Assembly: GCA_014297435.1 (NCBI GenBank)
Contig: JACOQA010000003.1
Span: 128,001 to 192,000, forward strand
DNA: 64,000 nt
Reading direction: 5' to 3'
DNA from: Candidatus Nanohaloarchaea archaeon
GTDB lineage: Archaea; Nanohalarchaeota; Nanosalinia; Nanosalinales; Nanosalinaceae
The notes beneath the pieces were generated by a model. That model was not told the origin of the DNA and did no database searches. It saw nothing but the letters and a program-made list of their open reading frames with translations. A program made the position numbers and the translations under genes. Positions 12,586-23,247 of this stretch are shown here, in pieces. Every line of letters starts with the position of its first letter. Within the stretch, counting starts at the first letter, position 1.

Positions 12586-13656
12586 ATGCAAGAAAAACAA
12601 TTCGTACAGAAAGGAGCCAGAAAGGTTCGTCTTCACGAGTTTCTGAAAGACGAGCTTGAAGGCGCAGGTTACTCTCACGCAGATATCGTGAGAACACCTA
12701 CATCGACAAAAGTCGTGATTTACGCACAGAGACCTGGACTCGTTATTGGAAGAGGTGGTTCCCGTATCAAGGAACTTACTTCTGACATGGAAGCAGAGTT
12801 CAACTTTGAGAACCCTCAGATAGAGGTAAACGAGATCGACGAACCTGATGCAGACGCACAGGTAGTCGCACAGTCCATGGCTGACTGGCTTGAGAAAGGC
12901 GGTCGCGCCAAAAGGGTTGGCTACACCTACCTTCGCAGGATGAAGGAAGCAGGTGTCCCAGGTGCAGAGATCGAGATCTCCGGAAAGCTTTCCGGAAACC
13001 GTGGAAGAACAGAAAAATTCTCGTTCGGATACGTAAAGATCTGCGGAAACACAGCAAAGGAAAACGTAGACCGCGGATACGAACTAGCTAGAACCAAGCC
13101 AGGTGCAATCGGAGTAAAGGTCAGGATGATGGAAGAAATGCCTGACTTCATGCACAGAGACGTAGATGTAGAGGAAGAGATCATGCATGAAACAGTTGAA
13201 GGCGGAGAATCCGTTGAAAAGGCAGAGAGAATTTCCGAGATCATCCAGGAAGCAGACAACATGACAGCAGCCGAGATCGAAGACGCTATCGAGACACTTG
13301 AAGAGGTCAAGACCTCTGACATCTCGAAGGACGAAGTAAGACAAGTCTTCGAGGACGGCGGACACGAAGAAACTTCAGAAGATGACGAAGAGGAAGCTGT
13401 TTCCGAAGAACCTGAGGAAGAAGATCAGGACGAATCGAAGGCAGACGAAGAAGCACCAGTAGAAGACACGGAAAAGTCTGACGAATCTGAAGGCGACGAA
13501 ACAGAGTACGCGGAAATCGTCTCAGGAACCATCAGCGATGCAAAGGACGCAATTGACGAACTTGAAGAGCCTGACTTCGCAGAGCTTCTTGCTGCTGAAG
13601 AGGCAGACAAAAACCGAACAACCTTTATTGACTGGTTGGAGAACAAGAAAGAATAA
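12586..13656 (+). CDS. rps3: 30S ribosomal protein uS3 with long acidic C-terminal extension
   Basis: KH domain RPGLVIGRGG, ISGKL; ~170 extra C-terminal residues. Confidence 0.98.
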   Translation: MQEKQFVQKGARKVRLHEFLKDELEGAGYSHADIVRTPTSTKVVIYAQRPGLVIGRGGSRIKELTSDMEAEFNFENPQIEVNEIDEPDADAQVVAQSMADWLEKGGRAKRVGYTYLRRMKEAGVPGAEIEISGKLSGNRGRTEKFSFGYVKICGNTAKENVDRGYELARTKPGAIGVKVRMMEEMPDFMHRDVDVEEEIMHETVEGGESVEKAERISEIIQEADNMTAAEIEDAIETLEEVKTSDISKDEVRQVFEDGGHEETSEDDEEEAVSEEPEEEDQDESKADEEAPVEDTEKSDESEGDETEYAEIVSGTISDAKDAIDELEEPDFAELLAAEEADKNRTTFIDWLENKKE

Positions 13657-13680
13657 AAGCAGAGTAAGGAGTGATTACAC

Positions 13681-13878
13681 ATGGCGATTCTAAAGGCAGA
13701 CGAGATCAGGGACATGAGCGAAGATGAGGCTCGAGAGAGACTCAACGACCTCAAGAAGGAAATTGTAGAGGAAAAAGGACAAATTGAGACAGGAGGATTC
13801 GCTGAAGACCCTGGAAGAATCAAGGAGATGAGGAGAACCATCGCCCGCATCAAAACAGTTCTCAACGAAAAGGAGTAA
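13681..13878 (+). CDS. rpl29: 50S ribosomal protein uL29
   Basis: EIRDMS, PGRIKEMRRTIARIKT. Confidence 0.97.
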   Translation: MAILKADEIRDMSEDEARERLNDLKKEIVEEKGQIETGGFAEDPGRIKEMRRTIARIKTVLNEKE

Positions 13879-13888
13879 ACGTACCAAG

Positions 13889-14194
13889 ATGTCAGATCTT
13901 AACGACGATAACCTACCGGACGACTTCGACCCTATGGACCAGCTTGCACGGTCCGAACAAACCATCACAGTCAAGATCGACACTCGTAGCTTCGGCAAGG
14001 AAATGACTGTTGTCGAAGGATTCGGGGACGATGTCGATATTTCTGAACTCGCATCCACCCTCAAGTCCAAGCTTGCATGCGGTGGAACCGCGAAGAATGG
14101 ACAGATCCAGCTCCAGGGAGATCACCTGAGGAGGATTGAAGAAGTTCTCGAAGGCGAAGGCTTCGACCGGGAGAACATCGACGTCAAACGCTAG
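13889..14194 (+). CDS. sui1: Translation initiation factor aIF-1 (SUI1)
   Basis: GKEMT, LKSKLACGGT, LQGDH. Confidence 0.96.
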   Translation: MSDLNDDNLPDDFDPMDQLARSEQTITVKIDTRSFGKEMTVVEGFGDDVDISELASTLKSKLACGGTAKNGQIQLQGDHLRRIEEVLEGEGFDRENIDVKR

Positions 14195-14280
14195 AAACTC
14201 CGTTCAAAAGCTTTCTTTGAACGGTTTCACAGCCCTTTTTACTTCCCAACTTTTAATTCTAGAATCCCTAATTCAACTAT

Positions 14281-14811
14281 ATGCCAGGACCTGTATTCCT
14301 AGAAGGAGAAGAAGCTGAACTAAGAACTATCGAGGAAGGAGATATTGAATTCCTCAGAGACAGTGTAAACCTTCCTGTTATCCGTAGAAACATTTTATCG
14401 GTAAGAAAACCGGAAAATAGAGCCAGCAGCGAGGACTTCTTCGAGAACGTAGTATGTTCTGACAATACTGTCCATTTCCTTATCTGTAAAGACGGCGAGA
14501 GAGCCGGCATAATCTCGGTAGAGGATAAAGGAACTGTGGAGAAGCTTGGACAGCTAGGTCTCTGGATACACCCAGATTACCATAACCAGGGTCTTGGAAC
14601 AGAGTCAACCAAACTAATGATTGAGCACGCCTTCGAACAGCTGGACTATCACAAACTGTATGCACGAGTCCACGAGAATAACGAGGCATCACAAGCACTC
14701 TGGGAAAAACTTGAGTTCGAGAAAGAAGGAAGACTGAAGGAACACTGTTACACAAACGGAGAATACATCGATGTAATTATGTACGGAATGCTTAGGAGGG
14801 ATTGGAGATGA
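14281..14811 (+). CDS. GNAT acetyltransferase, RimJ/RimL family
   Basis: MPGPVFLEG, HNQGLGT, N.AS..L.EK, EG.L. Confidence 0.92.
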   Translation: MPGPVFLEGEEAELRTIEEGDIEFLRDSVNLPVIRRNILSVRKPENRASSEDFFENVVCSDNTVHFLICKDGERAGIISVEDKGTVEKLGQLGLWIHPDYHNQGLGTESTKLMIEHAFEQLDYHKLYARVHENNEASQALWEKLEFEKEGRLKEHCYTNGEYIDVIMYGMLRRDWR

Positions 14812-15335
14812 CAAGGTTTATGGAACGCGACGGAGTTGTATTTAGACCGGTAGAGGAAGAGGACAAGGAATTCCTTAGAAAGCTAATTAACCATGAAAAT
14901 GTCAGAGACACAATCGGCATGGCTCCTAAACCAAAGAACCTGAAGGACGAAGAAGAACATGTCGAGTTAGCTAGTGAACAAGATGATGCAGCTTACTTCC
15001 TGATAGAGTACGAAGGCGAAAAGGTCGGAACAATCTCACTTGAAAATATTAACAGAGATTACCGTAGATGTCACCTAGGTCTGTCGATCCATCCGGATTA
15101 TCACGGGCAGGGAATCGGAACCACAAGCGTACAGATGATCACAGATTACGCATTCAAAGACCTCAACATGCACAAGGTGAGAGGCGGCTACCTCGAACAC
15201 AACCCTGCTTCGAAAAGAATTATGGAGAAAGCCGGGTTTCAGGAAGAAGGAATAGAAAGAGAGTTCAAATTGGTTGACGGTGGCTGGAAAGATGTTATCT
15301 GGATGAGCATCCTCGAACAAGAGTGGCGAGAATGA
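14808..15335 (+). CDS. GNAT acetyltransferase, RimJ/RimL family
   Basis: HGQGIGT, NPAS..IMEKAGF.EEG. Confidence 0.92.
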   Translation: MTRFMERDGVVFRPVEEEDKEFLRKLINHENVRDTIGMAPKPKNLKDEEEHVELASEQDDAAYFLIEYEGEKVGTISLENINRDYRRCHLGLSIHPDYHGQGIGTTSVQMITDYAFKDLNMHKVRGGYLEHNPASKRIMEKAGFQEEGIEREFKLVDGGWKDVIWMSILEQEWRE

Positions 15336-15815
15336 GAGTTAGAGAAGCCAGGAAGAAAGATGTTGAAGGTATTAGTGAGATAGCGGAGAAGACATGGATG
15401 GATTCTTACAGCTCGATCATTTCTGAAAGCACTATTCAGAAGGTTATCGATGACTGTTATGATTTAGATTCCTTAGAATATCAGCTGGATAAAGGTCTTT
15501 TCTACGTAGCCGAAGAAGACAACGAAGTAATCGGTTTCGCCCACGCAGGTTCCCGAAGACGGAAGTAAAGCCAATCTCTACCGGATCTACGTTGATCCAA
15601 ATTCTCAGAGAAAAGGTGCCGGCTCAAGGCTCTATGAGAAAATAGAGAATGAACTAAAGGATAGAGATATCGAAGGAATTAGACTGGAAGTCGTGTCTGA
15701 AAATGAGAAAGGTTTCAGTTTTTACAGGAAGAACGGATTTGAAACAGTGAATGTGGAGACAGTTGAGTTGAAAGGCGATGAAGTGGACCAGAAAGTTATG
15801 GAGAAAGGGATCTAG
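15332..15815 (+). pseudogene. Frameshifted GNAT acetyltransferase
   Basis: N-half stops at 15568; +1 frame from ~15554 continues with YRIYVDP..QRKGAG...N...FY.KNGF to TAG at 15815. Confidence 0.85.
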
Positions 15816-15941
15816 AGTTATGGTATTGAATACTTGATTATAAGTTTGCCTATTGAGGTCAGTAAGCTCTTAGGAATCTAGTTCTTGAGAAAATAGGCTT
15901 CTCCCTAAACCCATTTAATTGTTACTATGTAATAACAAAGT

Positions 15942-16718
15942 ATGTCGTTATTTGTTCAAAGGCAGCAACGCGGTATAGAAGCCGAGTTCGAGGATATTTT
16001 GCTAAATGACCCGCTCGGCCATGGAGCTGAATTGAACGAAGAGGCAATTGAGGATATATTCAGGGTCATAGAACTAGCAGACCGAGAGATCAATCACGGC
16101 TTCGCGGAAAGAGACTATATCTTTGATCATGGAAGAGCTGCCTTTGACTCCGATAAAGGAGGCGACAAAATCTCTATATCAATGGCTACAGAGTTCAAGC
16201 CCTTCAGACTCTGCCACGAGCTGGGACACAGCGCATACCATTCAGAGATACGGGAAAAAGTACCTGAATCTGACCCGGAGCCGATAAGAACTTCCTATTC
16301 CGAAGCATTCGCTGAACTTACTGCCTACCACCTCTTCGATCAGGTAGAAATGGACTACTCTGAATCCATACCAGAAAGAAACCCTTACACAAATCCTGAT
16401 CAGACAAGATTCTACGCCGAACTCGTAGAGGAAGATATACCTGACTGGAAGGAACACCATGAGAACTCAGATCTTCAGGTTGACTTACAGCACCACTCCG
16501 CAAACCTAATTGGTAGGAAGATGAGTGAGAAGGGATTAAACCCGAATAATGCCCTAGACTCAACACAACAGTTCTTCTCATTAGTGCGTCAAGGCCTCGA
16601 AGCAGTTGTGGAACACGGCACAGAGCTCTACAGACAGGGAGAGCTCGAACAGATCTACCCGCAGGGAAAAGAGAGATACGAGGAGAGACTGGACCAGATA
16701 ATAGAAAACAACTTCTGA
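15942..16718 (+). CDS. Putative zinc metallopeptidase-like protein
   Basis: HELGH plus downstream EAFAE. Confidence 0.65.
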   Translation: MSLFVQRQQRGIEAEFEDILLNDPLGHGAELNEEAIEDIFRVIELADREINHGFAERDYIFDHGRAAFDSDKGGDKISISMATEFKPFRLCHELGHSAYHSEIREKVPESDPEPIRTSYSEAFAELTAYHLFDQVEMDYSESIPERNPYTNPDQTRFYAELVEEDIPDWKEHHENSDLQVDLQHHSANLIGRKMSEKGLNPNNALDSTQQFFSLVRQGLEAVVEHGTELYRQGELEQIYPQGKERYEERLDQIIENNF

Positions 16719-16773
16719 CCCTCCAAAAGAACTATCAAAAGACCGTAAAAAATACCGAGAAACAAATTTATTT

Positions 16774-17988
16774 ATGGAGAAAGTCTTCCCCAAGTATGGC
16801 GAGGCATCGCTGGCAGACATTCCCGGAACAGTACTCTCCCTCTTTAATATAGAATCAGACCTAACCCGGTTAGACGAAGATATAGTTAATTCAGAGGAAG
16901 ACTACGAAAACGTAGTAGTAATTCTGATCGACGGTCTTGGACTAAACCAGTTAGAGAATTTTTCAAGAGGTTTTTTTGAAGAAGCTAAACAATCTGGAGA
17001 GCTTAAGGGGATTACTAGTGTATTTCCGTCAGCGACCCCAGCCACGCTTACCAGTATTAACACCGGCAAAACACCTAAAGAACATGGTTTGCTTGGATGG
17101 GAGATGTACTACGAGGAGATAGACTCGAATATCTTTACACTACCTTTTCTGACAACAGAGGGCGAAAAACCTCAAGATGCATTCGAGGAAGTTGACCCGA
17201 AGATGCTTTTCGAAGGCGAACCTATCTACCCAAGGCTTGAACAGAATGATGTAAACTGTTTTTCAGTAACTAAAGAGGATATTGTAGACAGCGAGTACAC
17301 TGAGATGGTCAAAAAGGGGTCGGAGATAGTGCCTTACCTGAACACTGCCGATATGGCGCTACAAATCAGGAGAACCCTGGAAGAAAATGAAGGTAAAAAG
17401 TACATCTATGCTTACACGTCCGATATTGATTCGATCTCCCATATGCGGGGTCCGAAGACTGAGGATGAGCGCAATCAGCTGGAGATGATCTCTGAGACCC
17501 TTAACAGAAATCTGGTTGAGGAGATGGATGAGGAAACAGCCGAGGACACTCTCGTGTTAATTACAGCCGATCACGGCCAGATCGAGCATGATGAAAAGGT
17601 GGATCTCTTCCAGTGGGATAATGTAGGTGAAAGCCTGAAGACGGATGACAACGGCGACTTGATAACTCCGACAGGTAACGGAGGTCGCTCCATCTTCCTA
17701 CATGTGAAAGAGGAGAAGCTCGATGAACTGCACAGCTTTCTGAACGAAAAGCTTGATGCAGAGGTAATGAAGACAGAGACAGCTCTAGAAGAAGGATACT
17801 TCGGTGAAGGAGAACTAGCAGATAATTTCAAGGCAAGAGCCGGAGAGTTAGTCATAGTTTCAAACGACAACAAAATTCACTGGGGTGAGCCCTGGAACCT
17901 TGAAGACATCGGGGTTCATGGAGGACTACATCAGGAAGAGATGAAGATTCCGTTGCTGAAGTTTGAGTTATCCGATTTAAGGAGGTAG
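16774..17988 (+). CDS. Alkaline phosphatase superfamily (nucleotide pyrophosphatase/phosphodiesterase)
   Basis: IDGLG, SVFPSAT, D..SH, TADHG, HGG. Confidence 0.92.
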   Translation: MEKVFPKYGEASLADIPGTVLSLFNIESDLTRLDEDIVNSEEDYENVVVILIDGLGLNQLENFSRGFFEEAKQSGELKGITSVFPSATPATLTSINTGKTPKEHGLLGWEMYYEEIDSNIFTLPFLTTEGEKPQDAFEEVDPKMLFEGEPIYPRLEQNDVNCFSVTKEDIVDSEYTEMVKKGSEIVPYLNTADMALQIRRTLEENEGKKYIYAYTSDIDSISHMRGPKTEDERNQLEMISETLNRNLVEEMDEETAEDTLVLITADHGQIEHDEKVDLFQWDNVGESLKTDDNGDLITPTGNGGRSIFLHVKEEKLDELHSFLNEKLDAEVMKTETALEEGYFGEGELADNFKARAGELVIVSNDNKIHWGEPWNLEDIGVHGGLHQEEMKIPLLKFELSDLRR

Positions 17989-18045
17989 ATTTCAAAACCT
18001 AGAAATTGGGAAAAACTCAAAAATCGGCGTGAAAAACCTCTAAAT

Positions 18046-18648
18046 ATGAGAGATACCGTCAAGAAAGGCTACGAAGAAGGCGACTACGAAGGAGAGTATC
18101 GAGAGAACAGAGAGATAGTTGAAAAAGAAAAACAGCTGTTCAAGAAGCTTTCTGACAACATCAAAGGCGATAAAGTACTTGATCTGGGTTGCGGTACGGG
18201 CGTTCCTTTCGATCGTTACCTCGTTGACGAGGGCTTCGACTTGACAGGTATCGATATATCAGAGAAACACATCAGAAAGGCAAGAGAAAACATACCTGAA
18301 GCCAAATTTCTTCAGGGAGACTTCTTTGATCAGGACTTCGGAGAGAACAGTTTCGATGCCGTAGTAAGTTTCTACGCTATCTTCCATATACCTAGAGAAG
18401 AACACCAGAAGCTTTTCGAAGAGGTGAGGCCCTGGTTGAAAGACGATGGAGCCCTACTTGTCACGATGGGTGCTGAAGAAATGGAGCAGCATAAAGAAGA
18501 AATAGGAGGAGGTGAACTTGTCTGGAGCTCCTACTCACGCGAGAAGAACAAAGAGCTAATAGAAAAAGCCGGGTTCAATATTTTGGAAACGTACGTAGAG
18601 GATTGGCGCGAGGAAACACATCTATGGATACTTGCCGAGCCCAACTAG
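18046..18648 (+). CDS. Class I SAM-dependent methyltransferase
   Basis: VLDLGCGTG, GIDIS, FDAVVSFYAIFH. Confidence 0.93.
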   Translation: MRDTVKKGYEEGDYEGEYRENREIVEKEKQLFKKLSDNIKGDKVLDLGCGTGVPFDRYLVDEGFDLTGIDISEKHIRKARENIPEAKFLQGDFFDQDFGENSFDAVVSFYAIFHIPREEHQKLFEEVRPWLKDDGALLVTMGAEEMEQHKEEIGGGELVWSSYSREKNKELIEKAGFNILETYVEDWREETHLWILAEPN

Positions 18649-19286
18649 AAATCCTCACCATCCATCTCCATCTCTATTCTTTCAATAGCTTGTTTATGCC
18701 TCTCTAAACGTTTCTCCGCCACTTTCTTAGTATAGTCAAAGTTAAGCTTCTTCATCTGTCCTCTATAGCGGTCAACTGCAGAGTCCCAGAAGTATTCTAG
18801 GCTATCATCAAAAGTTCTTTCGTGTTCGGCTGCGTAATGTATCTGCCGCCAGAGGTTGTTTACACCGAAGTTTGAAACCTTGTCAGCATCCTGCACAATT
18901 TTTCCTTCGACAGTTTGAGGTTCGGAGTGATGGTTCCTGATAATTCTTTGAATTTTCTTGAGCTGGTCTTCTGTAACAAAGTCAGAAACGTATTCCTCGA
19001 TTATCTTGGCTCCTCTTTCATCGTGTCCTTCATGTCCTTCAAAAGGATCCATCTCACCGTCTTCAATATCCTCTTTTCTGCCGATATCATGGTAGAGAGC
19101 GGCGATCTCCAAAACGTTCTCATCTATCTCCTCACTTGTTTCGACGTTTTGTTTCAGTTTGTGTACGATCTCTAGAACCGTTTTAAGGTGTCTGTAACGG
19201 TAGTTCTTTCCCCCGGCTATCTCGGTATAGTTTGAGAACTCGTCTTTCAGCCTTGATTTAAGCTCTTCTTCGACCTCTTTCTCCAT
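18645..19286 (-). CDS. HD-domain phosphohydrolase
   Basis: H...YHDIGR, HH, DAD. Confidence 0.9.
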   Translation of the reverse strand: MEKEVEEELKSRLKDEFSNYTEIAGGKNYRYRHLKTVLEIVHKLKQNVETSEEIDENVLEIAALYHDIGRKEDIEDGEMDPFEGHEGHDERGAKIIEEYVSDFVTEDQLKKIQRIIRNHHSEPQTVEGKIVQDADKVSNFGVNNLWRQIHYAAEHERTFDDSLEYFWDSAVDRYRGQMKKLNFDYTKKVAEKRLERHKQAIERIEMEMDGEDF

Positions 19287-19347
19287 AGAATAGTTATTGG
19301 AACAGAAAATCTTACAAGTTTGAGTTGAAAGTTAAAGGGGTAAAAGT

Positions 19348-19465
19348 AGTCTGGCAGCGTCCCGGAACTCCCGCCTGTAAGGCAGTACCGACCGGATCGC
19401 TGAGGGACTTTACTTCCGTGTTCGGGATGGGTACGGGTGTAACCCCCTCGCTCTGACCGCCAGTA
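19348..19465 (-). rRNA. rrf: 5S rRNA (stand-alone)
   Basis: Reverse complement CTGGCGGTCAGAGC...ACACCCGTACCCATCCCGAACACGGAAGTAAAG...GCTGCCAG with terminal helix I. Confidence 0.96.
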
Positions 19466-19551
19466 TCACAAATATCAGGTTTAACTCTTATAAACAGTGA
19501 TGGCGTTTAAGTCACGAAACATTCAAGCCCTTCCTAAGGTAATCTTTGGTT

Positions 19552-20037
19552 ATGAGAATTAGAACCGCGGATATCGAGGACAGAGAAATCTTGGCTCATG
19601 AGATGTGGATAGAACTTGCCGAGATGATGGAGCCTTACAGCGAAGCTAACGAGCTTAAGGAAGATCCTAAAGAGCTTGCTTTAAACGGATTCGAGAATGT
19701 TCTAGAAAGCGAAGATTACGAGACATTTCTAATCGAAAAAGACGGCAACGAAATAGGTTTCATGAACGTCAAGGTAGAGGAAAAAACCACTTTCAAGATG
19801 GATAAATGCTTGGACATAGTCGACCTTTTCATCAAAGAAGGTTTTCGTGGCGAGGGCTACGGAACCAAGTTAGTTGAGAAAGCGGAAGAATACGCAGATA
19901 AAACCGGATGCGATTACATAACCGTTTCCGCCGAGTGGAAGAACAAGAAAGCACAGGAGTTCTACGAGAAGAAAGGTTTTAAGCAAAAGCAGGTTCAGTT
20001 CATCAAATTGAGGGATGAAAAATGGAGCAGGCGATAA
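19552..20037 (+). CDS. GNAT acetyltransferase
   Basis: FRGEGYGT, N..A..FYEKKGF. Confidence 0.9.
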   Translation: MRIRTADIEDREILAHEMWIELAEMMEPYSEANELKEDPKELALNGFENVLESEDYETFLIEKDGNEIGFMNVKVEEKTTFKMDKCLDIVDLFIKEGFRGEGYGTKLVEKAEEYADKTGCDYITVSAEWKNKKAQEFYEKKGFKQKQVQFIKLRDEKWSRR

Positions 20038-21002
20038 AGGATAAGATTGAATCAGCTCTTGAAGAAAGTTTTGAGTGGACGAAAATTGAGAAAGGCTTAA
20101 ACAGTGTTTACAGAATCTATTCCGGGAAAAAAAAGTTTATCGTGAAAGTTCATACTAACGAAAACCTTGAATCCGAAAATTTCAAAGCCGAGCCACTCAT
20201 TTACGATGCAATACAGGAAAAAACGGATGTTCCAAGCCCTAAAGTCATACATGAATCACTTGATGACGAAGAGTTCAGCTTCTATGTCATGGAATTAATT
20301 GAAGGAGAGAATCCCGGACCAAGAAGAAAGAACTTGGAAATGGAAACCCTTGAAGACTTAATTTTCGAATACGGCAAGATTCTAGGGGAGATACATAGAG
20401 AAATAGGCTTCGAATCCTACGGAGAACTCGAAGGAAGTACGGACGGACCGACAGTCAGGGATAGTTCTGAGAACTGGAGGGATGAGCTCTCTGAAATATT
20501 CCATGTTTATAGGGATATTGTCGAAGACGAGTGGGATAACCCTCCGAAAATGGAAATACCTGATAATTTGGGCTGTATACCTGAGAGACCTAAGCCCTCA
20601 CTTATTCACGTAGACAACAGACTTGACAATCTTCTAGTCGAAGACAATCGGATAACCGGATTTATTGACTGGAGTTTTACACGTACCGGTCATAACGAGT
20701 ACGATCTCATACGGGCAGAATATCTGCTAATAGATTATGATCTAAGATTTCTTAGTGAGACCAAAAAGGAAAGACTCAAAGAAAGCCTTTTCGGAGGGTA
20801 TAGGGAGGAAATTGATCTGGATAAAGATTCTGGGTTCAAAGCAAGGAGACAGTTGTACCGGTATGCCCCGGTTTTCTGGCTGGCTGCAGGGTTTCAGAGC
20901 TGGGGTCAGGACCTAGAAAAAGATGCTTACCAGGAGATGCTCCAGTTGATTATTGAAAGCCTAAAGGAGGAAAAGCCAAAAAATCTTCCCTTCAACCAAT
21001 AG
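20022..21002 (+). CDS. Aminoglycoside phosphotransferase-family kinase
   Basis: LIHVD.RLDNLL, GFIDW. Confidence 0.85.
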   Translation: MEQAIKDKIESALEESFEWTKIEKGLNSVYRIYSGKKKFIVKVHTNENLESENFKAEPLIYDAIQEKTDVPSPKVIHESLDDEEFSFYVMELIEGENPGPRRKNLEMETLEDLIFEYGKILGEIHREIGFESYGELEGSTDGPTVRDSSENWRDELSEIFHVYRDIVEDEWDNPPKMEIPDNLGCIPERPKPSLIHVDNRLDNLLVEDNRITGFIDWSFTRTGHNEYDLIRAEYLLIDYDLRFLSETKKERLKESLFGGYREEIDLDKDSGFKARRQLYRYAPVFWLAAGFQSWGQDLEKDAYQEMLQLIIESLKEEKPKNLPFNQ

Positions 21003-21004
21003 TT

Positions 21005-21289
21005 ATGCCTATCACTCCTGAAAACCTTCCCCGCCACGAACTGATCGGACTTGAATGCGAAGTTGTAGAAGCAAAGGATGAGAACCTGATCGGATTGAAA
21101 GGCGAGGTTCTTGATGAGACTCAATCCCTACTAAGGATTGGTGATACGAAGGTCGAAAAGAAGATCTGCACTTTCGAATTCGAGCTTCCTTCAGGCGAAA
21201 AGGTCGAGCTGGACGGCAAACTGATTGATAAGAGACCTGAGGAACGTGTCGGGATGAAGCTTCCGGGCAAATGGAGTTACGTTGATTGA
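21005..21289 (+). CDS. rnp1: RNase P protein subunit Rpp29
   Basis: HELIGL, G.G.VLDET, RPEER. Confidence 0.95.
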   Translation: MPITPENLPRHELIGLECEVVEAKDENLIGLKGEVLDETQSLLRIGDTKVEKKICTFEFELPSGEKVELDGKLIDKRPEERVGMKLPGKWSYVD

Positions 21290-21326
21290 ACGAGCCTTTT
21301 TGAATTTTTGTTACTAACTGGTATGT

Positions 21327-21614
21327 ATGGGAGAGGGGAACTACACTTCGATCGAAGATTATTCTCAAGAAGGAGAGTTTGAGGTTGTGACTGCATTCAA
21401 CCTTGTAAATGAATTTGATATGAATCCTGAGCCAGGGAAGATGTGGGCTGTAGCCGATTATCTTATGAAGTCACTTCAGGGAAAGGACGAGGCTGATTCT
21501 TATGACGAAGCTATCCTCAAGTCGGCGAGAAACACCAGTATTGATCGTGGAGACAACCAACTGGACCTAGCTTACGATACTATCGAGGAGCTTGGAAAGC
21601 TTTACCTCGACTAA
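21327..21614 (+). CDS. Hypothetical acidic protein
   Basis: 95 aa ORF. Confidence 0.65.
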   Translation: MGEGNYTSIEDYSQEGEFEVVTAFNLVNEFDMNPEPGKMWAVADYLMKSLQGKDEADSYDEAILKSARNTSIDRGDNQLDLAYDTIEELGKLYLD

Positions 21615-21649
21615 ACCCCTTTTTAAAACTTTAGTTCTATTGTTGGGAT

Positions 21650-21779
21650 AGCCGCTTGGAGTCGTGAATTGACGAAAGCCTATTGTCCGGGTTTTCAGAT
21701 TGGAGCGATACTCCGGGAGCAGCGAGAGAAAAACCTCGTGTAGAACGTACAGTTTTTCCCGGGTAACTTACCAGTGGTT
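21650..21779 (+). ncRNA. Candidate ~130-nt structured non-coding RNA, class unknown
   Basis: TATA-like TTTTAAAA ~25-30 nt upstream; nested stems GCCGC(T)TGG/CCAGTGGT and TTGTCCGGG/CCCGGGTAA plus internal hairpins. Confidence 0.6.
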
Positions 21780-21828
21780 TACTTAAAAAGTTTACAATCG
21801 AACGAGACTACATCAGGGCTAAAGAACC

Positions 21829-22110
21829 ATGACAGAATCAATTGAAACCGAATACCCCGTTAGGGGAGGAACTTTCGTTGGGACGGTAGAGTCCACGAAG
21901 ATGCAGAAATCCGCAACAGTAAGATGGGAGTACTCTGAGAAGGTTCCCAAGTACGAGAGGTACGAGAGAAGAAACACCAAGATAACGGTTCACGTGCCCG
22001 AAGACGTAGAGATCGAGGAAGGCGACGAAGTCAAAGTAGGAGAAACGAAGCCTATCTCGAAGACTAAAAGCCATGTTATAATCGAAAAAGTAGAAGACGG
22101 TGAAGAGTAA
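21829..22110 (+). CDS. rps17: 30S ribosomal protein uS17
   Basis: KYERYERR, ETKPISKTK. Confidence 0.97.
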   Translation: MTESIETEYPVRGGTFVGTVESTKMQKSATVRWEYSEKVPKYERYERRNTKITVHVPEDVEIEEGDEVKVGETKPISKTKSHVIIEKVEDGEE

Positions 22111-22509
22111 ATGAAGCCGATCGGATCCAACATAACAAGAACACTGGATATCGGCGCAGAACTTACATGCGCAGATAACTCCGGAGCAAAGAAGCTAGAA
22201 ATCATCGGAGTCAAGGCAAGACAGGGACGACGTTCCCGAAGGAACTCTGCAGGAATCGGAGACAAAGTAATGGTAAAGATCCTGAAGGGAGACCAGGAAG
22301 TCAAGAACCAGGTCTTCGAAGCAGTGATCGTCAGACAGGCAAAGGAATTCCAGAGACCTAACGGACTAAGAGTAGAGTTTGAAGACAACGCAGCAGTACT
22401 AGTGGAAGACACAGGACTTCCAAAAGGATCGGTTACAAGAGGACCTATCGCGAAAGAAGTCGTCGAAAGATACAGCCCGATCGGAAAGATCGCATCACAG
22501 GTGGTGTAA
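22111..22509 (+). CDS. rpl14: 50S ribosomal protein uL14
   Basis: CADNSGAK, FEDNAAV. Confidence 0.98.
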   Translation: MKPIGSNITRTLDIGAELTCADNSGAKKLEIIGVKARQGRRSRRNSAGIGDKVMVKILKGDQEVKNQVFEAVIVRQAKEFQRPNGLRVEFEDNAAVLVEDTGLPKGSVTRGPIAKEVVERYSPIGKIASQVV

Positions 22510-22512
22510 AAA

Positions 22513-23247
22513 ATGGTAAACGAGACAGAGAACTGGAGTAGCAACTGGAAATCAAGCAAGAAACCTTCAAAACAGAGAAAGTACAGAGATAACGCACCTC
22601 TACACGTAAAGGACAAACTTGTTTCTGCACATCTAGACGAAGAACTTAGAGAAGAAGTCGGAACAAGAAACATGCCTCTCAGAACAGGAGACAGAGTAAG
22701 AGTTATGAGAGGAGACCAGAAAGGTGCAGAAGGAATCGTAAACAATATTGACAGAGAAAATACTCGAGTCTACATCGATGGAGTTGAGAACGAGAGAACC
22801 GATGGTTCAACGAACCAGAAGGCTTTCCCTCCATCCAACGTACAGATCGTAGCACTAAACATCGAAGACATCTCAAGGATCGAGAAATACGATGTCGAAG
22901 ACTACGAAGAGATCAAAGTCGAAGAAGAAGAGCTCGAAGAAGCCCTAGCAGAAGATGAAGAAGAGAACGAGATGATGCAGCAGATGCAGGGCGGAGAATC
23001 AGGAGCTCACGAGCAGTTCGAAGAAGACGAAGAAGAAACAGAAGAAGTAGAGGAAGAGACTGAAGAAACAGAAGAGGAAGAAGTTGAAGCCGATTACAGC
23101 GAAGTTGTTTCGCAGAACATCGGCGATGTAAAGGATTCAGTTCAGGAGATGGAAAGCCCTGACTACGATGCTCTGCTCGAAGCAGAGGAAGACAACAAGG
23201 ACAGGAAAACCATGAAGGAATGGATCGAATCTCAAAAAGAGGAGTGA
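22513..23247 (+). CDS. rpl24: 50S ribosomal protein uL24 with long acidic C-terminal extension
   Basis: SKKPSKQRK, APLH, GD.V.VMRG; ~125 extra residues. Confidence 0.97.
   Translation: MVNETENWSSNWKSSKKPSKQRKYRDNAPLHVKDKLVSAHLDEELREEVGTRNMPLRTGDRVRVMRGDQKGAEGIVNNIDRENTRVYIDGVENERTDGSTNQKAFPPSNVQIVALNIEDISRIEKYDVEDYEEIKVEEEELEEALAEDEEENEMMQQMQGGESGAHEQFEEDEEETEEVEEETEETEEEEVEADYSEVVSQNIGDVKDSVQEMESPDYDALLEAEEDNKDRKTMKEWIESQKEE

Follow-up and report, generated by a model that had tools for sequence, protein, structure and literature searches.

A four-helix module ending ribosomal proteins uS3 and uL24 of a nanohaloarchaeon and its distribution among other proteins

A domain shared by the tails of uS3 and uL24

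We analyzed a 64,000-nucleotide stretch of DNA (hereafter, the window) from Candidatus Nanohaloarchaea archaeon (contig JACOQA010000003.1, positions 128,001 to 192,000), the plus strand of which, as judged from its list of open reading frames (ORFs), holds a ribosomal-protein cluster with the genes for uS3 and uL24. Both proteins end in a copy of the same module of about 47 residues, which low-complexity linkers join to the terminus of the host protein. An earlier sequence-only reading of this DNA had proposed just such a shared module after acidic linkers, and its ORFs and coordinates proved to be right. The two tails (49 to 50 residues) align without gaps, with 24 of 49 positions identical and 36 of 49 positive (E = 3e-16 in BLASTP with compositional adjustment). 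The similarity also withstands correction for composition: the two modules reach a Smith-Waterman score of 136, compared to a mean of 25.5 (standard deviation, 5.0; maximum, 51) in 5,000 composition-preserving shuffles (z = 22), and the whole tails, linker plus module, score 207 versus 86.9 ± 9.1 in shuffles. Haloarchaeal ribosomal proteins often have acidic tails, and both of the tails studied here are rich in aspartate and glutamate, such that a chance or compositional likeness had to be considered; we give it practically no credence, as it is ruled out by the compositionally adjusted alignment, by a score 22 standard deviations above the shuffles, by the confident structural model described below, and by the recurrence of the module with a lysine-rich composition in nonhalophiles. 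The uS3 and uL24 tails are thus confirmed as homologous copies of one domain. The canonical cores of both proteins are intact, with Pfam and NCBIfam equivalog matches that exceed the cutoffs; these matches are confined to the N-terminal cores, and none lies over the tails.

Modeling of the module with AlphaFold2 (AF2) and a 47-sequence alignment yielded a predicted local distance difference test score (pLDDT) of 92.9 and a predicted template modeling score of 0.69, with 44 of 49 residues at or above 90, while an alignment of the five copies of its own genome alone yielded a pLDDT of 66.8. The model consists of four helices (residues 2 to 6, 9 to 17, 24 to 33, and 38 to 48) and no strand, i.e., a short helix followed by three further ones, and the consensus of the module reads Y-E-E-I-V-x-G-T-I-x-D/E-A/V-K...P-D-Y...L-L-E-A-E-K-x-G/N-K-D/N-R-K-T-L-x-x-W-L-E. 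Because the model is confident and the family is conserved across phyla, the tails are best understood as a shared folded domain and not as disordered extensions, in line with what had been supposed from the sequence. The module is accordingly predicted to be a mobile, independently folding four-helix domain rather than acidic low-complexity sequence.

Parts of the linkers are themselves conserved. Relatives keep the initial part of the uS3 linker (EIIQEADNMTAAEIEDAIE...DISKDEVRQVFE) in their uS3, and a region of about residues 217 to 265 (positions 13234 to 13380; …EADNMTAAEIEDAIE…DISKDEVRQVFE) is kept across genera and has a faint likeness to the start of the module. The start of this linker may be a decayed first copy of the module, given that two complete modules are present on the uS3 of Asbonarchaeaceae and in the protein cluster P0021; the profile match of linker residues ~234 to 247 as a degenerate first module was not significant (score, 0.2). 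In uL24, a linker stretch (EKYDVEDYEEIKVEEEE..EMMQQMQ) is kept in relatives, and the region of about residues 125 to 172 (positions 22885 to 23030; EKYDVEDYEEIKVEEEE.EEAL…EMMQQMQGGES) retains its sequence from genus to genus, which suggests that this part of the linker is probably more than a passive spacer.

Distribution of the module among genomes and host proteins

We built a profile from the two tails and searched it against the 1.0-Mb genome from which the window is taken, as well as against relatives, and recovered copies in both. Five strong copies were found in the genome itself, namely, on uS3, uL24, eS24, and two membrane proteins, and hence the sequence-only reading, which had noticed the module on two proteins, counted too few. 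Two weaker and divergent modules were detected on a very acidic protein encoded outside the window (Table 1), whose conserved C-terminal region has no Pfam family. As a separate observation, the C terminus of uL10/P0 in this genome is a plain acidic tail (...EEDKSEE) that lacks a stalk-type peptide, and aP1 retains one (...EGLGSMF); P0 of one relative (G012) ends with the module instead.

The module was found in 69 of the 70 genomes of the same phylum (Nanohaloarchaea in the source records), with 1 to 11 matches each; the lone genome that lacks it, G028, is 93% complete. Among the relatives, 40 of 41 have the module, and the source names of the homologs include Candidatus Nanohaloarchaea, Nanohalococcus, Nanohalovita, and Nanosalinarum. 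We inspected six genomes gene by gene, i.e., that of the window and five complete ones from other genera of the family. The module is borne by uS3 and eS24 in all six, by uL24 in five (it was not found on uL24 in G008), and by eL31 and uL10/P0 in one each; a membrane protein with an N-terminal module occurs in five, and each of the six has both ribosomal and membrane-anchored or scaffold copies. Within the phylum, then, uS3 and eS24 are tagged near-universally and uL24 usually, and each ribosome should bear several such heads, on both subunits.

A profile search of 1.84 billion representative proteins recovered 338 clusters with E values of ≤1e-3, 102 of them at ≤1e-10. We surveyed the hosts of the best 150 of these 338 representative clusters, naming them by Pfam. 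Ribosomal proteins account for 29 (12 eS24, 11 eL31, 2 uS3, 2 uL24, 1 uL22, and 1 eL32), and there is one each of RpoA'' (Rpb1_5), KaiC, Gins51_C, OapC, and MoxR (AAA_3), along with proteins bearing C2H2 fingers. Further hosts encountered are uL10/P0, eS6, topoisomerase I, ParA/MinD, a Complex1_30kDa (NuoC-like) protein, a DsbA-like membrane protein, and coiled-coil proteins with a winged helix-turn-helix (wHTH) domain. The module is terminal in nearly all of the 150, at the N terminus in 61 and at the C terminus in 86; when membrane spans are assigned by a crude hydropathy criterion, 45 consist of an N-terminal module followed by a span, and in 12, spans precede a C-terminal module. Two or more modules are carried by 26 of the 150, tandem arrays of 2 to 5 occur, and the module is also met as a free mini-protein. 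A set of 76 longer homologs from a 5.8-billion-sequence collection includes 48 uS3, 6 uL24, and 2 eS24 proteins. The module is therefore not restricted to uS3 and uL24: with at least eight ribosomal proteins and many nonribosomal ones among its hosts, it is a promiscuous domain.

Nor is the module limited to one phylum. A scan of one genome per species returned 61 loci with the module, and the submitter labels beyond the phylum of the window are Aenigmatarchaeota, Altiarchaeales, Hadarchaeota, Asbonarchaeaceae, and "Nanobdellati." The ribosomal and RNA polymerase hosts found there are uS3 with a C2H2 finger, eS24, eL31 with C2H2 fingers, eS6, eL32 (N-terminal module), and RpoA''; the others are topoisomerase I, ParA/MinD-type ATPases, a Complex1_30kDa (NuoC-like) subunit, a DsbA-like membrane protein, and a PAS sensor. 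The occurrence is patchy, with 11 of 151 sampled genomes positive in the phylum of G070 and 7 of 66 in that of G071. In G070 itself, a complete chromosome, uS3 is the sole bearer of the module, and no membrane-anchored copy was present among the matches in Altiarchaeales, Hadarchaeota, and one Aenigmatarchaeota metagenome-assembled genome (MAG). The linkers of nonhalophiles are lysine rich instead of acidic, and the motif of the module is retained; since the linker thus varies with the proteome and the module motif is kept, the head appears to be the conserved, functional unit.

Two architectures recur. In relatives, an ArsR/TrmB-like winged helix is combined with a long coiled coil and 1 to 4 modules (L119, L118, L040, and L053); such proteins are possibly scaffold or nucleoid-associated proteins. 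C2H2 fingers, which in their classical form are uncommon in archaea, repeatedly adjoin the module (L126, L073, L131, and L139; P0005, P0043, and P0141), and the combination is seen in Aenigmatarchaeota uS3 and eL31 and likewise in small proteins, membrane proteins, and a five-module KaiC-type ATPase.

Residue conservation was derived from 295 unique modules. E31 and R37 are invariant, and K13 (91%), K35 (87%), D23 (85%), and T39 (85%) are strongly conserved. Basic residues occupy positions 32, 35, 37, 38, 41, and 47 regardless of host class (ribosomal, membrane, or other), at a mean net charge of −4 to −5, and the surface positions beyond this basic ridge are variable. Ribosomal-type and membrane-type modules, compared for complementary charges, differ modestly at positions 10 and 17, with no clear pattern emerging. 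A tree of 32 modules drawn from the six genomes places all 19 modules of ribosomal proteins, together with one on an unidentified 238-aa (amino acid) protein of G016, in a single clade of 20 (support, 96/97), within which the modules are not sorted by host protein. In one genome (G018; L028, L101, and L109), the DNA of the uS3 and eS24 modules is 90% identical, and 40 of 42 codons are identical at identical residues. The DNA identity of other pairs is mostly ~0.35 to 0.6, with a few pairs, chiefly of eS24 orthologs, at 0.74 to 0.84; that of the uL24 module of G018 is also raised (0.71 to 0.74), and the three ribosomal copies of the window's own genome, at 0.42 to 0.52, bear no mark of recent conversion. 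These values, as read from the DNA, indicate recent gene conversion between unlinked ribosomal-protein genes of G018. Conversion between copies in turn implies that modules on different ribosomal proteins would be functionally interchangeable.

Table 1. Features of the window and further copies or loci in the genome
Feature	Location	Strand	Description
uS3 gene	12586..13656	+	356 aa; core, linker, and module; ORF
uS3 core			Pfam KH_2 (residues 16-87) and Ribosomal_S3_C (99-180); NCBIfam 30S ribosomal protein S3 (residues 2-216)
uS3 acidic linker	13234..13506	+	Residues 217-307; 91 aa; 46% D+E, 5% K+R
uS3 module copy	13507..13653	+	Residues 308-356; profile E 4.9e-32; AF2 pLDDT 92.9
uL29/SUI1	13681-14194		Flank before the interruption
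Interruption of the cluster	14281-21002		Three GNAT acetyltransferases, type I phosphodiesterase, methyltransferase, HD protein (minus strand), APH-type kinase
RNase P p29/uS17	21005-22110		Flank after the interruption
uL24 gene	22513..23247	+	244 aa; core, linker, and module; ORF
uL24 core			Pfam Ribosomal_L26 (residues 15-123) and KOW (59-89); NCBIfam rplX_A_E (15-124)
uL24 acidic linker	22885..23094	+	Residues 125-194; 70 aa; 54% D+E, 3% K+R
uL24 module copy	23095..23244	+	Residues 195-244; profile E 3.7e-33; gap-free versus uS3 copy
eS24 (Ribosomal_S24e)			Module at C terminus
Single-pass membrane protein			Module at N terminus; weak DsbC_N-like outer part
232-aa bPH_2/zinc-ribbon membrane protein			Module at C terminus
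510-aa very acidic protein	Contig C9:67239-68768 (outside window)		Two divergent weak modules near N terminus (E 1.6e-4 and 0.038)
Loci of the P0/aP1 tail observation	Contig C8:40366-41358 and L123:1456-1767		

The ribosomal-protein cluster of the window is broken up by about 6.7 kb of unrelated genes between the uS3 and uL24 genes (Table 1). In relatives, the distance between these two genes ranges from 4.5 kb up to hundreds of kilobases.

What the tethered heads may bind

The reading that we favor, tentatively and with less than even confidence, is that the module is a tethered binding head whose ligand is most likely a polyanion, above all a nucleic acid (RNA or DNA). The head on its flexible linker would act as an address tag that reaches out from the host machine's surface; contact with the ligand would be made by the basic ridge K32-K35-R37-K38-K41 (plus K13 and K/R47), and ribosomes, RNA polymerase, DNA enzymes, and some membrane proteins would thereby be held near RNA or the nucleoid in very small cells. 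On the small membrane proteins, we infer that the module lies at the cytoplasmic end, because one such protein has a DsbA-like domain past the membrane span. That the module is a tethered binding unit at all is suggested by the combination of a folded head, a long tether, a free terminus, surface-exposed host subunits, and an interchangeable and sometimes tandem use. A polyanion is favored as the ligand because the basic ridge is kept in acidic, lysine-poor proteins, because RNA and DNA machines predominate among the hosts, and because zinc fingers (C2H2 or zinc-ribbon) often adjoin the module and tandem arrays occur, such arrays being common for nucleic-acid-binding repeats. The presence of the module on uS3 alone in G070 means that a second module-bearing partner is not required, and the patchy spread across phyla favors a ligand that is present everywhere.

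Several observations weigh against a nucleic acid ligand. The searches matched no family or fold known to bind nucleic acids, the hints of a helix-turn-helix (HTH) in Pfam being subthreshold, and the halophilic modules are net acidic (about −10 in the uS3 copy) and sit on polyanionic linkers, which is odd for a nucleic acid binder. The invariance or strong conservation of E31, R37, D23, and T39 may simply reflect structural roles, as a salt bridge and helix caps. Some hosts have no connection with nucleic acids (the NuoC-like subunit, the DsbA-like and bPH_2 membrane proteins, MoxR, and the PAS sensor), and in G012 the module takes the place of the P0 stalk tip, which in canonical stalks recruits protein factors. 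The best structural neighbors, INTS3 and Ctf4, are protein-binding helical modules, although with Z scores in the noise range.

A different partner, a protein, is invoked if the head serves as a docking tag that engages a shared protein hub or further copies of the module, such that machines are docked to anchors or scaffolds or ribosomes are paired; we hold this to be possible but on the unlikely side. It would account for the co-occurrence of ribosomal with membrane-anchored or scaffold copies in all six nanohaloarchaeal genomes, for the 45 of the 150 best representatives in which an N-terminal module, probably cytoplasmic, precedes a membrane span, for the scaffold-like proteins with 2 to 5 modules, and for the G012 P0 protein, in which the module stands in place of a factor-recruiting peptide. 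MinD/ParA and AAA+/KaiC proteins, in which terminal elements serve localization or substrate recruitment, are among the hosts, the homogenization of ribosomal copies within a genome is as expected if one partner must fit all of them, and the weak structural neighbors are peptide- or protein-binding helical modules. However, ribosomal-type and membrane-type modules showed no complementary pattern of charges, the surface outside the basic ridge is variable, and neither the lone uS3 copy of G070 nor the matches in Altiarchaeales, Hadarchaeota, and the Aenigmatarchaeota MAG come with a membrane-anchored one, and docking of module to anchor is therefore not general. The proposal of the sequence-only reading that the tails are tethered interaction tags thus stands in part: a folded domain on linkers on both subunits, together with the membrane-anchored and coiled-coil copies, fits docking or localization, whereas G070 speaks against anchor docking as the general mechanism, and the basic ridge and the nucleic acid machines among the hosts would suggest a polyanion or nucleic acid ligand at least as strongly. 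The roles in ribosome dimerization, hibernation, or polysome ordering that the reading put forward would be guesses. A bolder form, which we consider doubtful, is that of a self- or cross-associating "velcro" unit that would link ribosomes (with 3 to 5 tentacles on both subunits), RNA polymerase, replisome parts, ATPases, and membrane anchors, with multimodule scaffolds as cross-linkers and free mini-proteins as regulators. If true, it would amount to an organizing principle of the cytoplasm of ultrasmall archaea, in which transcription, translation, and secretion are coupled at the envelope.

The conserved basic ridge within an acidic domain could also face the anionic lipids of the archaeal membrane and hold the tagged machines there. 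The hosts include MinD/ParA proteins, whose canonical relatives have a C-terminal membrane-targeting element, Complex1_30kDa, which belongs to a respiratory or hydrogenase complex bound to the membrane, and numerous integral membrane proteins in which the module adjoins the span; on the other hand, the module has no amphipathic or hydrophobic surface feature, its aromatic positions look like core, and the hosts are mostly soluble nucleic acid machines, all of which makes a membrane tether improbable. We deem it very improbable that the head and linker act purely in cis as an aid to assembly or solubility, protecting or chaperoning the host before its assembly without any ligand, in the manner of ubiquitin on eS31 and eL40. 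The hosts are indeed abundant and enter large assemblies, and as in the ubiquitin fusions, a small folded domain decorates ribosomal proteins of both subunits; but the module is C-terminal, all-helical, and devoid of a Gly-Gly cleavage site, it also heads membrane proteins and occurs free and in tandem, and the polar residues that stay invariant from phylum to phylum suggest that its role is not just passive.

Whichever ligand applies, a phylum-wide decoration of both ribosomal subunits with like tethered heads is unexpected and directly testable, as several nanohaloarchaea are now in coculture. If each ribosome of the whole phylum bears such heads, they would constitute an uncharacterized layer of ribosome biology in ultrasmall symbionts, which could be one of localization, of RNA or DNA capture, or of docking. 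The cells measure 200 to 400 nm and hold a few hundred ribosomes, and a head common to RNA polymerase, topoisomerase, replisome parts, and membrane proteins may show how these ribosomes are organized relative to the nucleoid or envelope. The uncurated family of 338 clusters also merits a model of its own, and many "hypothetical protein" annotations would thereby be corrected.

Relation to known families and systems

Neither module is covered by a family in Pfam, which was also run on the best 150 hosts, or in NCBIfam, for which the uS3 and uL24 proteins were scanned at E ≤ 0.01, and the Pfam columns of 159 homologs are empty over the module. Subthreshold Pfam matches were obtained to SNRNP200_wHTH (E = 0.043; 14.4 bits, with a cutoff of 27) and HTH_72 (E = 0.0088; 16.4 bits, with a cutoff of 27). 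Foldseek searches of the Protein Data Bank (PDB) and the BFVD viral models recovered nothing at E ≤ 0.001, the top viral row having an E of 0.94. A wide VIA structural search of 48,161 chains was led by INTS3 (Z = 5.4) and the C-terminal helical domain of Ctf4 (Z = 5.3), values within the noise range for helical models, and we rejected a fold assignment from it; a second structural look returned Ctf4 again (Z = 4.9). The nearest clusters by protein language model features (ESM Atlas) are those of DUF8129 (PF26450), a family of small archaeal and viral proteins of ~71 aa, with cosines of 0.82 to 0.87 and 170 to 203 of 256 features shared, a likeness that stays under the level (0.9) at which it would count as more than a lead. 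A tblastn search with a free module turned up nothing among 50,697 phage records, and the term DUF8129 was not found in the literature searched.

No description of the domain or of its fusion to these ribosomal proteins, which the sequence-only reading had taken to be undescribed, was found in the portions of the full-text literature searched (including PMC9258230, bioRxiv 10.64898/2026.06.17.729505, PMC6393860, and PMC13607799). One of these remarks only on the difficulty of interpreting indels at the termini of universal proteins in nanohaloarchaea (bioRxiv 10.64898/2026.06.17.729505). The module represents a new family of domains whose mode of use, that of accessory domains tethered to ribosomal proteins, is a known one, and it can be set against several systems of this kind.

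The host range resembles that of the HhH, SAP/HeH/LEM, and WHEP-TRS domains, helical units of ~35 to 60 residues, often in tandem, that linkers attach to the termini of polymerases, topoisomerases, translation proteins, and membrane anchors. Unlike these, the module has another helix count and a motif of its own; Pfam returned no match to any of them or to Rho_N at E ≤ 1 for either module, and none was among the top 50 structural rows. SHOCT, a short C-terminal domain of bPH_2 and other membrane proteins, is comparable as a short terminal helical add-on of bPH_2/zinc-ribbon membrane proteins (compare the 232-aa protein in Table 1) but differs in length and motif, and there is no Pfam SHOCT match.

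The ubiquitin moieties fused to eS31 and eL40 are likewise single small folded domains on ribosomal proteins of both subunits. They are N-terminal, adopt the beta-grasp fold, and are cleaved off, whereas the module is all-helical, is C-terminal on uS3, uL24, and eS24, and has no Gly-Gly junction. A profile match to poly-ubiquitin among PDB sequences was dismissed as a repeat artifact, with 5 bits per stretch, an E of 0.76 for a single ubiquitin, and an all-helical model. The P-stalk tails of aP1 and P0 offer the remaining parallel, being conserved elements that end a long flexible acidic tether on the ribosome and fish for ligands. The stalk element is short and has a C-terminal peptide motif of the G-L-G-x-L/M-F type; the module instead ends in ...W-L-E-x-K/Q, without a hydrophobic peptide of the stalk type, and is a 47-residue folded domain of unrelated sequence that is found on many other hosts.

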